DNA from: Octopus vulgaris
Taxonomy: Eukaryota
Direction of reading: 5' to 3'
DNA: 64,000 bases
Assembly (NCBI GenBank): GCA_951406725.2
Contig: OX597817.1
Coordinates: forward strand, 54,560,001 to 54,624,000
Of the stretch, positions 3,101 through 56,184 are shown in pieces. Within the stretch, counting starts at the first letter, position 1. The number at the start of each line of letters is the position of its first letter. The notes below the pieces were generated by a model. The model saw only the letters and a program-made list of their open reading frames with translations, ran no database searches and was not told the DNA's origin. The translations under genes were made by a program, and so were the position numbers.

Positions 3101-3396
3101 CAGTAATTCCTCGCCATATCGCGTTTCACCTATCGCGCACTCAGTACATCACGGTTCACCTATCGCGCACTCAGCACATTGCGGTTCACCTATCGCGCAC
3201 TCAGCATATCGTGGTTCACTCATCGTGCACTCAGTAGATCGTAGATTTTTCTGGCTAATATAAATAGATTTATATCACGGATTCCTCAGTATATCGCGGG
3301 TTTCTGTAGCCGATAGGTATTTATATTTTTTTACATTTTTATTATTTCTGTTCGAGGTTTAGGAACGTTACACCCGCGATAGTCGAAGGATTGCTG
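3101..3396. mobile_element. pogo/Tigger-type MITE with internal 30-bp tandem repeat (about 4 copies)
   Basis: TA-flanked imperfect TIRs CAGTAATTCCTCGCCATATCGCG / CGCGATAGTCGAAGGATTGCTG; unit GGTTCACCTATCGCGCACTCAG... repeated at about 3117-3240. Confidence 0.75.
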
Positions 3397-24102: not shown

Positions 24103-24728
24103 CTATGTTTGACTTTTGCTTTATGTCTGTACAAGTTGGCTCCAAGTCTCACCCAGAGACCTCAAGAGACAACAGGTTGGAAGTTCTGTGCCCTATATTT
24201 GGCTTTTTTTTTTTTTTTTTTTTGGTGTTGTACTAGTGAATGTCTAATACATAAAAATAATAAATAAATAAATAAATAAAAATAAATAAAAGAAAAGTTT
24301 GTTTTAAACCTTGGGATTACATAGAGAGTATTTTGCGTAGGATATGAGCAGTTCCCATGAGCACTATCTTTTGAATTTCTGCCATTTTGGGGTTTCCTGG
24401 TATCTGAGTTAGGTAGCAATCAGTCCCTTTCGCTATCATTCCCAGGGCACCTATGACAACAGGTATTGTTTTAGTCTTCAGCTTCCACATTTTGCTGATT
24501 TCTATTTCAAGATCTTTATATTTGCTCAGTTTTTGGTAGGTCTTGACAGATACGTTTATATCGATTGGGACAGTCATATCAATGAGGAGGTATGTTCTTT
24601 GTCTGAAGTCTTTCAATATAATGTCTGGCCTATTTGCATCTATCTTCCTGTCAGTTTGAATGGTGAAGTTCCAGAGGAGTGAGATGTGGTCATTTTCAAG
24701 CACAGGAGGTGGATTGTGTTCCCACCAG

Positions 24729-24732
<4 letters not shown>
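24103..24732 (-). mobile_element. 3' fragment of an RLE-type (R4/Dong-like) retrotransposon in a (TAA)n tract
   Basis: Open frame WWEHNP...ANRPDIILKD...LLIDMTVP..KLSKYKDL..EISKMW...PVVIGALG...ILRKILSM* (PD-D/ExK-type RLE); (ATT)n on both flanks. Confidence 0.85.
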
Positions 24733-36082: not shown

Positions 36083-36643
36083 TATTTATTTCTTTATTGC
36101 CCACCGAGGAGACAAACAAGGACAGACAAAGAGATGAATTCGATTACATCGACCCCAGTGCGAAACTGGTACTTCTTTAATCGACACCGAAAGGATTAAA
36201 GGCGAAGTCGACCTCGTCGGAATTTGAACTCAGAACGTAACAGCAGACGAAATACCTATTTCTTTACTACCCACAAGGGGCTAAACCCAGAGAGAAGAAA
36301 CCAGGACAGACAAACGGATTAAGTCGATTACATCGACTCCAGTGCGTAACTGGTACTTAATTTATCGACCCCATGAAAGGCAAAATCGACCTCGGCGGAA
36401 TTTGAGCGTTAGACAAATTACCTATTTCTTTACTACCGACAAGTGGCTAAACACAGAGAGGACAAACAAGGACAGACAAACGGATTAAGTCGATTATATC
36501 AACCCCAGTGCGTAACTGGTACCTATTTAATCGACCCCGAAAGGATGAAAGACAAAGTCGACCTCGGCGGAATCTGAACTCAGAACGTAAGGGCAGACGA
36601 AATACTGCTAAGCATTTCACCCGGCTTGCTAACGATTCTGCCA
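36083..36643 (-). mobile_element. Tandem trimer of SINE family B units
   Basis: Three consecutive units starting TATTTCTTTA at about 36086, 36258 and 36423. Confidence 0.85.
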
Positions 36644-38777: not shown

Positions 38778-39111
38778 TATGTTTAAGGTCTATGGACACA
38801 CACACACAGTGAAACTGACATTCACGTACATATGTTGTTACACGCATGCAATCACACATCCATATTTTTCTATATGAATAATATTTTCGTCTTATGACTA
38901 ATTCGTCTTTTGTGCTGGGCACCTGGTAGTAAATAATATTACTACCCTTCTTGTTTATATTCGCATACTACATGATGAATTTATTCGTAAAATTCTTCCC
39001 GGCATGCCCGTGTAAATTTTGCGTCTGCGCAGAGATTTGAAAAGTTAAGATCTGCTAGTAGTCGGGTTTAACATATAGCCCCACATCGCTGAAGACCTCG
39101 ATTAAATTCAG

Positions 39112-39191
39112 GCGACTCGCTGATGAAGCCAGCCTTAGCAAACATATTCTGTGTTTTGCTAGAAAGAAGCAGAAACCGCGGTACGAGTTGT
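39112..39191 (+). ncRNA. Type I hammerhead ribozyme (canonical core)
   Basis: GCGACTCG-CTGATGA-...TAGCAAACATA ttc TGTGTTTTGCTA...-GAAA-CCGCGG-TA-CGAGTTGT; 8-bp stem I (2 G-U pairs), palindromic stem III ACCGCGGT, GUA site at 39183; base of stem II is weak. Confidence 0.8.
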
Positions 39192-39556
39192 TAAAATTAT
39201 CGGTAAACGTTTTTGATTTTCACTCTCGATAAATTCATCCCCTTTTTGTGTTCCCAGCACTCGGCATCTTTATTTAGGAGCCCTTAATTGTATAACCACA
39301 TGAATAATATTTTTCTATATGAATAATATTTTCGTCTTATGACTAATTCGTCTTTTGTGCTGGGCACCTGGTAGTAAATAATATTACTACCCTTCTTGTT
39401 TATATTCGCATACTACATGATGAATTTATTCGTAAAATTCTTCCCGGCATGCCCGTGTAAATTTTGCGTCTGCGCAGAGATTTGAAAAGTTAAGATCTGC
39501 TAGTAGTCGGGTTTAACATATAGCCCCACATCGCTGAAGACCTCGATTAAATTCAG

Positions 39557-39636
39557 GCGACTCGCTGATGAAGCCAGCCTTAGCAAACATATTCTGTGTT
39601 TTGCTAGAAAGAAGCAGAAACCGCGGTACGAGTTGT
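39557..39636 (+). ncRNA. Type I hammerhead ribozyme (second tandem copy)
   Basis: Same sequence as 39112-39191, offset by 445 bp. Confidence 0.8.
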
Positions 39637-39830
39637 TAAAATTATCGGTAAACGTTTTTGATTTTCACTCTCGATAAATTCATCCCCTTTTTGTGTTCCC
39701 AGCACTCGGCATCTTTATTTAGGAGCCCTTAATTGTATAACCACATGAATAATATTTTTCTATATATATATATATTTATCTGTTGGTAACAATCCAGCGT
39801 GGAGACGCGCACCAACGTCAGTTGTGGCAC

Positions 39831-52414: not shown

Positions 52415-55400
52415 GATTGATTGATTGATTGATTGATTGATTCTAGTTTCAGCTTATGAGCTGTGGCCATGCTGGGGCACCGCCATTTGGTGTCGCTACT
52501 TGGTTTCACTTCATGGAGGCTTTCTAGCAACTGCTATTTGGTGCATGAGAGAGTTCGATGCAGCTGCCCTCATCTGCCCCTCCTGCTGTGAAGTTGGTTC
52601 ATCTGGGACACCTGACAGGAAGAGATCCAGCTTCATTTTAAAGACATCTGTATCCACCCCATGCAGGTCTCTCAGGTTCTTCGGGAGGATATTGAAGAGC
52701 TGTGGGCCTCGGAAGCCCAGGCTATCACAGAATCTTGTCCTACATCTTGATGGCAGGTTTGGAGTCCTAGGCACCACGCAGTGGCGCCCAGTTCTGGCAT
52801 TTGCGTAACTCTCGATGCCAAAGTTCAGGACACTTCCCTCCAGGATCTTCCAGATGTATATTATGGCATATCTTTCCCGCCTACGCTCCAGGGAATATAA
52901 TTTTAATCTCTTGAGTCTTTCCCAGTAGCTTACATTCTGCATAGAGGCTATCTTCTTTGTGTAGCTTCGTTGGATCGCCTCAAGTTCTGTGATCAACTTG
53001 ACACTGGATGGTGACCATAGCTGAGAGCAATAGTCAAAGTGGCTTAGGACAAGTGTCTTCCAGAGGACCATCATGGTTTCTTGTTCTCTTGTTCTAAAGG
53101 TTCTAAGAATCCATCCAGCCAGCCGTCTACATTTCATTGTCAGTTTAGCAACATGTACATGAAAGGTCGCGTCATCACTCATGTGAATACCCAGGTCACG
53201 CACTGATTGTGCCTCTGGGATTGCAATCCCTCCGGGTCCAGTGTATTCATTGGGTATTGCATTCAGTTTTGCATGCTGATAGTATAAAGCTTGAAACTTT
53301 CCAGCATTGAACTGCATGCTATTCTTTTCAGCCCACTTGTATATTTCGTCCAGCTCACATTGCAGGTGTTTAGTGTCCTCAGGGTTCTGTATTGCCTGTG
53401 AAACTTTTGTATCATCTGCATAACTTGTGATCGTGGCTCTCTGCGTGGCTGAGGGCATGTCTGAGAGGGCCATTATGAACAGTAGTGGTCCCAGAACAGT
53501 GCCCTGCGGAACACCGCTCACTATTTGTGTGTTAATGGAGGTGGCCCCATTGGCTACTACCACCTGACTTCTATCCTTCAGAAAGTCATGAAGCCATTCT
53601 CCCAGTTTTCCAACTATGTTGAGATCACGCAGTTTGTGACATATCATTCCATGATCGACTTTATCAAAGGCCTTTGCAAAGTCGAGATATGTCACTTCCA
53701 CATTTGAGTGGTTGAGCAGCCGTTTCAGCACCCAGTCATAGTGTTGTAGGAGCTGAGTTAAACAGCTTCTCCCTGGTCGGAAATCATGTTGGGTGTCGGG
53801 CAGCAAGTCATTCTCTTCAAGGAAGGTGATCAGCTTCCTTCTGACTATTCGTTCCATGACCTTGCTGATGTGTGAGGTCAGAGAGATAGGTCTATAGTTC
53901 TTGGCTTCCGCTCTGCTACCTCCTTTATGAATGGGGCATATTTTACCTTCCTTCAGTTTTCCTGGAAGTTTGCCAGCTGCAAGGAAGCTCTGAAAGAGGA
54001 ACTGCAGTGGTCTTGCTAGGACTCTCTTACATGCTTTTAGGAGGATTGCCGGGAATCCATCGGGGCCAGTAGCTGAGTCTGTTTTCATTTCATCTATAGC
54101 CTTGGTTACATCGTCTTCCTTTATATCGATGTAATCTATCGTCGCCGCCTCTGATTTTATATCTGCAGTGGTAAAAAAGTCAGTTGGATTGGTGATTTGG
54201 AGATGCCCAAGGGGTGGAGTGAAAACACTCTTGAATTGCTCATTCAGTATTTCACTTACCCTCATTGGTTTTCCTGTAAGTGTGCCATCCTTTTCGAGGA
54301 GTGGCCCTATTCTACAGTGCACTGTAGCTGTTTCTTTGGCATACCTGTAGAAAGCTCTGGGGTTAGATTTTATGTTTTCTATAGCCCAGGCTTCTTTGTC
54401 TGCTCTTTCTTTTTCATGGGAGAGTTGCAGACATTTTTCGATTTCCAACAGTTTTATTTTTAGGCGGGACTTTTCACTGCTTTCAATCTGTTTGTTTAGG
54501 CGATTTGAAAATTTCGTACGCCGTCTCATTAAAATTTTCCTCTCTCTGGGGATTTTGTTCTTGTGTACAGTGGCCTTTCTCTCTGGGACACATTTGTAGC
54601 ATATGGCTTGCATTACAGACATGAATTGTTGAAGTTTCACGTCGATGTCTGGCGAGGAGAGACATTTAGGCCAGTTTTGTTTGAGGATCTCTTTCTCAAT
54701 TTGTTTCCAGTTTGCCTTATGGTAGTTCAAGCTGGAAAGATTTTGAGGGTTTCTTGTAGGCTGCATGTCCGTGCTCTCTTTTGGCCCGTACATGGTCAGC
54801 TCTATCATGTTGTGATCCGAGAGTAGTGTCGGTGTCACTTTCACATTATGGATGAGATCCATGTCATTTGTGAAGCAGAGATCCAGTGTGTTACCTGCCC
54901 TGGTTGGTTGGAGTATTACCTGCTCCATGTACAGGGTGTTGATGAGGTTCAGGAGGGACCTCGCCTGTCCTCGTTCACATCTTGTCATTCCTGGGAGAGA
55001 AAGGCCCTCGGGCCATCTGACATTGGGCCGATTGAAGTCTCCCATAAGAAGCACACCTATGTGTTGTTCTAATGTGGTTAGAATTTCTTCTATTTTTATA
55101 AGGCAGTCTTCAAACTTGCCCACATGGCTTGGGGCATCTGGAGGGCGATATGTAGCACACACAACTACATCAAGTTGCCTAATATGTACAATTAGTGTGT
55201 CACACACCGAGTTTGAGTATGACAAGAGGACCTGGGGTGTGAGGTCCTCACGGATGTACATAGCAACACCTCCATGACTCCTTTCTTTCCTGTCGGTCCG
55301 TAGTACAGCATACTGTGGTATGTGTAACTCCGCATCTGCTATGTCCGGTTTCAGGTGCGTTTCCGTAAGTGCTATGCATAAGGCTTGATTGCATGCAACA

Positions 55401-55456
55401 AAGTCTCTCAGGAACGGGATCTTTGTCCTGTTACTGAGTGTTTGCAGTCCTCTGAT
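52415..55456 (-). mobile_element. CR1/L2-group LINE with short 3' UTR and (AATC)n tail; 5' end lost in (TA)n
   Basis: ORF2, 3' UTR at 52443-52510 and (GATT)n at 52415-52442. Confidence 0.9.
52511..55456 (-). CDS. LINE ORF2: APE endonuclease plus reverse transcriptase (about 980 aa open; native start missing)
   Basis: APE motifs IRGL, LTETHL, GDFN, LDL, SDH; RT motifs NYRPISLTS, YLDFAKAFDKV, GVPQGTVLGPLLF, YADD, DLG; no stops. The ORF-track extension to 55612 is microsatellite read-through. Confidence 0.92.
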   Translation of the reverse strand: MRGLQTLSNRTKIPFLRDFVACNQALCIALTETHLKPDIADAELHIPQYAVLRTDRKERSHGGVAMYIREDLTPQVLLSYSNSVCDTLIVHIRQLDVVVCATYRPPDAPSHVGKFEDCLIKIEEILTTLEQHIGVLLMGDFNRPNVRWPEGLSLPGMTRCERGQARSLLNLINTLYMEQVILQPTRAGNTLDLCFTNDMDLIHNVKVTPTLLSDHNMIELTMYGPKESTDMQPTRNPQNLSSLNYHKANWKQIEKEILKQNWPKCLSSPDIDVKLQQFMSVMQAICYKCVPERKATVHKNKIPRERKILMRRRTKFSNRLNKQIESSEKSRLKIKLLEIEKCLQLSHEKERADKEAWAIENIKSNPRAFYRYAKETATVHCRIGPLLEKDGTLTGKPMRVSEILNEQFKSVFTPPLGHLQITNPTDFFTTADIKSEAATIDYIDIKEDDVTKAIDEMKTDSATGPDGFPAILLKACKRVLARPLQFLFQSFLAAGKLPGKLKEGKICPIHKGGSRAEAKNYRPISLTSHISKVMERIVRRKLITFLEENDLLPDTQHDFRPGRSCLTQLLQHYDWVLKRLLNHSNVEVTYLDFAKAFDKVDHGMICHKLRDLNIVGKLGEWLHDFLKDRSQVVVANGATSINTQIVSGVPQGTVLGPLLFIMALSDMPSATQRATITSYADDTKVSQAIQNPEDTKHLQCELDEIYKWAEKNSMQFNAGKFQALYYQHAKLNAIPNEYTGPGGIAIPEAQSVRDLGIHMSDDATFHVHVAKLTMKCRRLAGWILRTFRTREQETMMVLWKTLVLSHFDYCSQLWSPSSVKLITELEAIQRSYTKKIASMQNVSYWERLKRLKLYSLERRRERYAIIYIWKILEGSVLNFGIESYANARTGRHCVVPRTPNLPSRCRTRFCDSLGFRGPQLFNILPKNLRDLHGVDTDVFKMKLDLFLSGVPDEPTSQQEGQMRAAASNSLMHQIAVARKPP

Positions 55457-55467
55457 ATATATAAATG

Positions 55468-55539
<72 letters not shown>

Positions 55540-56132
55540 CATATATACATATGTGTGCATATACATACACCGAAGTGCACATAAGTACTTTACTGTATAA
55601 AAACAAAACCATTTCTTTTTATCCCTTTTTCTTTTCTAAATATCAAAAGTGAAATAGTTTTACCACTGATCTAACATCAATAAATTCCATGACCTGATTA
55701 CCCAGCGGTAACAGTATTAGTCTAGTCTAGAACTGGGTTCCAACCCTATTAAATTACACTCAACCATCATCGCATTGATCCCGTACCATTCCACATAAAT
55801 GTGGGACAAAATATATACATATTAGGCAACTACATCAAGTTGCCTAATATGTACAATTAGTGTGTCACACACCGAGTTTGAGTATGACAAGAGGACCTGG
55901 GGTGTGAGGTCCTCACGGATGTACATAGCAACACCTCCATGACTCCTTTCTTTCCTGTCGGTCCGTAGTACAGCATACTGTGGTATGTGTAACTCCGCAT
56001 CTGCTATGTCCGGTTTCAGGTGCGTTTCCGTAAGTGCTATGCATAAGGCTTGATTGCATGCAACAAAGTCTCTCAGGAACGGGATCTTTGTCCTGTTACT
56101 GAGTGTTTGCAGTCCTCTGATATATATAAATG

Positions 56133-56184
<52 letters not shown>

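Follow-up and report, generated by a model that had tools for sequence, protein, structure and literature searches.

Within the window analysed here, a stretch of 64,000 nucleotides of Octopus vulgaris DNA (contig OX597817.1, positions 54,560,001 to 54,624,000) from a microsatellite-rich genome of 2.8 Gb, two head-to-tail copies of a 445-bp sequence lie side by side. The locus raises the question of what kind of element they represent, whether its RNA could cut itself, and how the two copies came to be adjacent and identical. Direct sequence comparison showed that positions 38862-39320 equal 39307-39765 at a lag of 445 with zero mismatches and with dissimilar flanks, and the two identical units described in the initial annotation are thereby confirmed; TRF reported the array with a period of 445 and 2.1 copies. 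With position 1 of the unit set at 39184, the insertion comprises the following features.

38862..39765, plus strand: whole insertion, 904 bp, 2.03 head-to-tail units, from unit position 124 (5'-truncated) to unit position 137
39184..39628, plus strand: cut-to-cut monomer, 445 nt, 37.8% GC, non-coding
38855..38875, plus strand: 5' junction, starting with ATAT, with a 14-bp overlap ATATTTTTCTATAT
39756..39777, plus strand: 3' junction, where the unit sequence TCTATAT enters a short (TA)n target run

The ORF list of the window contains no frame of at least 110 amino acids in the 445-nt unit. The predicted fold of the monomer was better than that of shuffled sequences (z -3.15), with 0 of 100 shuffles equally good. 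The ATAT at the 5' junction is readable as microhomology to a TA target. Other copies contain the 14-bp sequence ATATTTTTCTATAT within the unit, so that it need not represent a target-site duplication, and a duplication of this kind around each unit was ruled out.

Each unit was expected to contain a hammerhead with an 8-bp stem I, cleaving after 39183 and 39628. Both ribozymes were located by pattern at these positions, and stem I is present in the local minimum free energy (MFE) fold.

39112..39191, plus strand: type I hammerhead 1, with stem I at 39112-39119/39184-39191, core at 39120-39126, an A·A stem II base, GAAA at 39172-39175, palindromic stem III at 39175-39182 and the predicted cut after 39183
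39557..39636, plus strand: type I hammerhead 2, identical to the first, with the predicted cut after 39628
39135..39162, plus strand: extra hairpin of 28 nt within loop II, followed by AAAGAA (second copy at 39580-39607)

The unit is laid out as GCGACTCG-CTGATGA-(stem II)-GAAA-CCGCGG-TA-CGAGTTGT, with CTGATGA at 39120 and 39565 and GAAACCGCGGTA at 39172 and 39617, and stem I, formed by GCGACTCG and CGAGTTGT, comprises six Watson-Crick and two G-U pairs. A loose scan for the core pattern on both strands of the window gave 11 matches, only two of which have a stem I (9 pairs versus 0-2). Since no core with a stem I occurs on the minus strand of the window, a viroid-like ambisense unit was dropped from consideration. 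The earlier description of canonical-core hammerheads holds for the core bases and fails for stem II, where A·A (39127/39171) takes the 10.1/11.1 position at the base and the loop carries the extra hairpin. A search against Rfam returned no match, either at the gathering score or at E≤10, and the assignment is therefore based on the pattern and on comparative evidence. The stem II variant may help to explain why profile searches miss such ribozymes.

Stem III is an 8-nt palindrome, ACCGCGGU, which in the monomer would form one pair and a palindromic tetraloop. Hammerheads with such a stem III are described as dimer-active in the available text of PMC7229834 and PMC4209133. This palindrome, together with a predicted double-hammerhead fold that gains 9 kcal/mol over two single folds, supports in silico the proposal that two adjacent copies would be needed for activity, as in retrozymes. 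The constrained active dimer fold lay 15.9 kcal/mol above the unconstrained MFE, which lacks stem I, and the probability of stem I in a 651-nt folding ensemble was 0.0; tertiary contacts are outside the model.

Comparison with other copies indicated how this structure varies. N7 and H17 are free positions of the hammerhead core, and the common haplotypes are distinguished by N7 (T/C), H17 (A/T), loop II and a variant of stem III, CCGTGCGG. A set of 167 motifs, including some overlapping loci, had T or C at N7 in 135 and 32 cases and A, T or G at H17 in 95, 71 and 1, and stem I pairs 1-6 held in 161-167 of the motifs. The search pattern imposed the invariant core and A10.1, so these counts show pairing and not core conservation; the latter was seen directly in an alignment anchored on the 3' side. 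All 167 motifs have A·A at 10.1/11.1, with 10.1 fixed as A by the search pattern. Three further hammerhead families in the genome have the same layout in other letters: between families, stem I pairs are altered on both sides, stem III is often another palindrome, and the A at 10.1 stands opposite A, C or T throughout (A·A in 24 of 27 motifs of a short-stem family, A·C in a family with a 546-bp unit). In a canonical type I hammerhead a small loop II docks on stem I; the AAAGAA of the 445-bp family, which comes after the inserted loop II hairpin, is retained and has its counterpart in the AAATAA of the short-stem family. Judged from these alignments, the A·A stem II base is a consistent variant and not damage at the window locus. 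The best-tolerated 10.1/11.1 mismatch described is U·U, not A·A (PMC3088659).

The two units belong to a dispersed family. Scoring 40 of 1088 candidates yielded 164 matches; the scored copies are 81-100% identical and the full-length ones 93-100%. A 20-nt motif of the unit occurs in 213 exact copies in the genome (0 for the reversed control). The copies are spread over many chromosomes, and their arms are between 0.05 and 9.85 units long. For the analysis of insertions we used 93 loci, namely the 40 best-scoring ones and 53 from motif listings (C1-C5 matches and matches of the GTT subfamily), a selection by score or motif that biases the sample towards long or motif-bearing copies. By its sequence, the window array is one insertion of a dispersed family that fits the non-LTR retrozymes of animals, a young insertion of a mobile, non-coding repeat with a probable self-cutting RNA in each unit. 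This class of element is known, and the window locus alone is an ordinary member of it.

The genome and the window hold further repeats. A second young hammerhead tandem family, the one with the 546-bp unit, is found at L202:1026-1571 (G000:C2 near 8.13 Mb) and many other loci, and is probably more numerous than the 445-bp family; long-stem motif matches in the genome number 674 in all. L195 (G000:C8:86114200-86118500) is a chimera of a 445-bp family hammerhead and a 546-bp family body, which suggests template switching between the two RNAs. The loci L070-L109 represent an older, partly tandem hammerhead family with a short stem II and an AAATAA loop (93 motif matches, control 1), L073 carries another long-stem hammerhead with ACGCGCGT as stem III, and L226 and L227 hold an older relative of the 445-bp family, similar to sequence seen by eye in loose ends of sequencing run X8. 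On the minus strand of the window, an open LINE frame with an APE endonuclease and a reverse transcriptase (52511-55618; 979 amino acids scanned) starts at a (TA)n run, and a partial copy of the LINE 5' end lies upstream of it at 55822-56181. A fragment at 24317-24730 (minus strand), beside (TAA)n, resembles a restriction-like LINE endonuclease; Pfam gave no match for it. TRF also detected a 30-bp repeat of 4.1 copies at 3118-3241 and two copies of a 166-bp SINE-like repeat at 36245-36577.

The ends of the insertions follow a defined pattern. In the 93 loci, 118 of 141 arms run into (TA)n, with at least 8 TA steps within the next 24 nt. The 3' ends of 135 arms fall into two zones of the unit, which were delimited after inspection of the histogram, and those of 6 arms lie elsewhere.

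39263..39328, plus strand: zone B of 3' ends, unit positions 80-145, mode 111 (39294 and 39739), 57 of 141 arms
39373..39419, plus strand: zone A of 3' ends, unit positions 190-236, modes 222 and 230 (39405 and 39413), 78 of 141 arms

Zone A lies directly 3' of a hairpin (39370-39391), and the modes of the zones coincide with short TA-like stretches of the unit. We infer that the two zones are starts of reverse transcription, one for each arm. Head-to-head inversions were present at 45 of the 93 loci, three of them with an unclassified end, and in 41 of the 42 classifiable inversions an A end was paired with a B end about 110 nt away (permutation p ~1e-5). The window copy is a single arm ending at unit position 137, a minor B end shared by 2 of the 141 arms. 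Pairing of A and B ends recurred in the 546-bp family, which has no sequence alignable to the 445-bp family: among 26 loci, mostly chosen as inverted, we counted 18 AB, 2 AA, 4 with an unclassified end and 2 single arms, a pairing of 18/20, with end modes at 275 and 168. In both families the main ends lie 10-12 nt past the end of a CCCT motif, which is present in 3 and 5 copies in each unit; this is a post hoc observation. By analogy, these paired-end scars point to the 'tail' signature of Penelope-like elements (PLEs), yet are longer than the 30-40 nt described.

This pattern bears on two alternatives. Tandem arrays in microsatellite-rich surroundings could also come from a passive satellite spread by recombination at the DNA level, with the hammerhead as a relic, and we regard this as very improbable. 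The reading is largely refuted by the way the copies end: 3' ends are fixed and 5' ends scattered, the TA junctions are strand-asymmetric, and the ends of inversions are paired; the spread over many chromosomes and the conserved ribozyme structure also speak against it. Mobilisation through twin priming by a LINE of the APE or REL type, instead of by a PLE, is also improbable, if less extremely so. It would draw on the long open APE and RT frame beside (TA)n in the window (52511-55618) and on the inversions that twin priming yields in L1, according to the available account. LINE copying begins at the RNA's 3' terminus, and twin priming combines one terminal with one random internal start; in the present family, by contrast, the two outer ends lie in fixed internal zones, each in a different one, both arms can be longer than a unit, and the end pattern matches the PLE tail.

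The perfect identity of the two units had been taken to imply either a very recent event or an assembly duplication. The identity itself stands, and the choice of causes was too narrow, for in this family the units of an insertion usually have their variants in common. At informative sites, opposite arms differed by 1.3%, units within an arm by 1.9% and loci from each other by 24.4%. Seventeen locus-private substitutions were common to all units of their locus, 7 of them across both arms, and the 17 include the private base of the window copy (unit position 354, found at 1 of 84 loci). Private changes were confined to some units in 9 cases, so that long arrays are not uniform, and to one unit in 119; both counts tell against a clean single template. 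Given the usual sharing of variants, identical units are expected from the copying of a single template, and an assembly duplication is not needed to explain the window dimer. A later duplication of a single unit, by unequal recombination or by the assembler, is accordingly judged unlikely. Perfect identity that includes the rare substitution at unit position 354 would agree with it, as would the resemblance of the 14-bp overlap to a target-site duplication, and three private changes are common to two neighbouring units of L166, showing that local duplication occurs; the four sequencing runs, none of which covers the flanks or bridges the locus, are uninformative by themselves. Against these points, the 14 bp belong to the unit, arms with several units are frequent (23 of at least 2.0 units among those listed), 29 of 165 same-strand pairs within loci are without any difference, and private changes in all units of a locus, seen 17 times, are impossible by duplication in the 7 cases that extend across inverted arms.

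What served as template can be narrowed down from the same insertions. Among the 141 5' ends, a single one falls no more than 3 nt from the predicted cut, and at 12 of the 45 inverted loci each arm is longer than one unit. These two observations rule out a linear cut monomer and leave a circle or an uncut multimer. Whole-number arm lengths, as expected from a circle, are weakly enriched, with 14 arms in the length window versus 32 in its flanks (binomial p 0.07, permutation p 0.02; p 0.10 and 0.07 in the motif-sampled subset). On balance, a circular template is slightly favoured over an uncut multimer.

The competing reading retains the family and the PLE and takes the ribozyme to be weak or dispensable, the templates being uncut read-through multimers of one homogeneous source array at a time. 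We assign it a substantial probability, still well short of even, which refers to the template being an uncut multimer. It is favoured by the Anolis PLE, whose hammerhead mutants still insert, with unprocessed RNA as the main substrate (available text of PMC11167929), and by the non-canonical stem II, the unfavourable predicted fold, the weak whole-number signal, the variants present in some units only at L031, L038 and L166, and a contig from sequencing run X1 described below. Its difficulty is that four diverged families have kept the core and stems while N7, H17, loop II and the stems, on both sides, have changed. In addition, the 17 private substitutions found in all units of a locus come most simply from one short template, although unsampled source arrays could carry them.

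The run X1, guessed to be RNA, contained the unit as one contig of 444 nt across the cut site, and run X8, likewise guessed to be RNA, as one contig of 475 nt across the cut site; no listed run that bears the unit is on record as RNA. The figure of 475 equals 445+30, which we take to be the length of a closed cycle if the contigs were built with 31-mers; the same length would be expected from a multimer or from a tandem in DNA. The X1 variant has 0 differences from the units of L031, an array of 9.85 units, and of L035, as the multimer reading would have it, and the X8 variant is at least 3 changes away from any sampled copy. A run guessed to be DNA contained the unit in 717 pieces. A single dominant variant per run is compatible with RNA.

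A candidate for the partner enzyme is present in the same genome. GIY-YIG matches are abundant (148 of 150 scored, among 6136 candidates), and one young TA-targeting PLE family has intact frames of 781 amino acids with RVT_1 and GIY-YIG domains. Its CxxxxCxxC linker is read as Neptune-like on the basis of the accessible literature. The 3' repeat of this PLE carries a minimal hammerhead-like motif with U3-A8, a reported covariation (PMC3088659), and the exact motif occurs in 605 copies. Copies of the PLE run out into (TA)n, with two classes of ends separated by about 36 nt: the 39 motif hits inspected, of which 2 repeat a single locus, comprised 29 short, 6 long and 4 other ends, and in both inverted PLE loci seen, a long end was paired with a short one. 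The PLE loci L169-L171 and L228-L257 show an overlapping upstream frame and insertion into (TA)n. The one PLE frame near a copy of the family (L167) was considered as part of the element and rejected as a separate insertion on the other strand. The 445-bp unit, which lacks an RT and GIY-YIG frame, unlike an autonomous PLE, had no sequence link to 31 GIY-YIG loci taken from the 150 of 6136 candidates that were scored (best E 0.004 over 31 nt), and no pLTR homology of the unit was found among these 31 loci. The 781-aa PLE is a candidate for the partner, not an identified one.

Taken together, the family is probably a non-autonomous hammerhead retroelement (a non-LTR retrozyme) mobilised in trans by an EN+ Penelope-like element. 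A tandem copy would be transcribed, and adjacent hammerheads may then pair through the palindromic stem III and excise the 445-nt monomer, which a host ligase could circularise as in known retrozymes. The RT/GIY-YIG protein of a PLE, the putative enzyme, would cut (TA)n DNA and start reverse transcription inside the RNA at TA-like sites, in zone A for one strand and about 110 nt upstream in zone B for the other, as the end pattern suggests. Consistent with the anatomy of the copies, synthesis would continue past the cut site of the ribozyme over 0.1 to about 10 units, and the ends of the cDNA would be joined to each other, giving inversions, or to the target; the window copy would be a single-arm product of 2.03 units. 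More specifically, a Penelope RT dimer may have copied a ribozyme-made circle by rolling-circle reverse transcription, proceeding from the two target strands simultaneously, with two structure-defined starts about 110 nt apart, on RNAs without sequence alignable to the autonomous element or to each other and with an active A·A, hairpin-extended hammerhead variant; in this full form the proposal is tentative, and we would sooner doubt it than rely on it.

Parts of this scheme have precedents. The available text of PMC3846280 and bioRxiv 10.1101/2021.04.23.441226 describes PLE copies that are inverted and tailed at one end, and a (TA)n bias in some clades. For a PLE in vitro, PMC11167929 reports, in the text available, that both AT-rich strands are cut and that two internal RT starts define the tail. 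Two reports run counter to the scheme: the RNA inserted by the Anolis PLE is uncut, according to the same text, and of 9 vertebrate retrozyme dimers tested in one study, 8 did not cleave.

Metazoan non-LTR retrozymes, as portrayed in the available text of PMC7229834 (Cervera & de la Pena 2020) and of bioRxiv 10.64898/2026.07.22.740005 (Li, Clavereau & Pollet 2026), resemble the 445-bp family in being non-coding tandem units of less than 45% GC that occur as dimers to multimers, with one type I hammerhead per unit, no LTR, PBS or PPT seen, and PLEs in the genome. The stem III of the unit is of the amphibian HHR_Amex1 type (one pair and a palindromic tetraloop), and its length of 445 nt exceeds the 170-400 nt of the former source and lies within the 51-972 bp of the preprint. 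The octopus family differs from the retrozymes presented there in its A·A stem II base and in the hairpin inserted in loop II. In the text available, the two papers do not describe inverted arms, 3' ends at fixed internal positions, tails or a preference for (TA)n targets, and their link between retrozymes and PLEs rests on co-occurrence and pLTR homology. Mobility of retrozymes with circles as templates is put forward as a hypothesis in PMC7229834, and the preprint states that the mechanism remains to be elucidated, again as far as the available text goes. In the literature covered (supplements, Repbase and Dfam being outside its scope), we found no description of the family itself, the ribozyme variant, the 110-nt tail or a scar-based PLE link; in the main text of PMC13282606, 'ribozyme' and 'retrozyme' have 0 occurrences.

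Plant LTR retrozymes are likewise non-autonomous, with two hammerheads that bracket the monomer (available text of PMC7229834 and PMC4918200). They have type III hammerheads, LTRs, a PBS and PPT, 4-bp target-site duplications and more than 55% GC, none of which applies to the 445-bp family, and a plant-type LTR retrozyme was ruled out by the type I topology, the 37.8% GC and the permuted tandem units. EN+ PLEs (Poseidon PAc; PMC11167929, in the text available) share with the family 5' truncation, copies in tandem and inverted form, a tail confined to one end, AT-rich targets and a hammerhead upstream of the RT start sites. In contrast to them, the 445-bp family is without an ORF, its hammerhead is full-size instead of minimal, and its tail measures about 110 nt, not 30-40 nt, the candidate PLE's own tail being about 36 nt. 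Its ends have TA microhomology to the target, whereas the PAc start site is described there as not homologous to the cut DNA. The family thus offers dozens of young, sharp-ended insertions with a Penelope signature, a second family that repeats the pattern and an intact candidate enzyme, and its end modes name exact start sites that are testable in the existing in vitro PLE assay.
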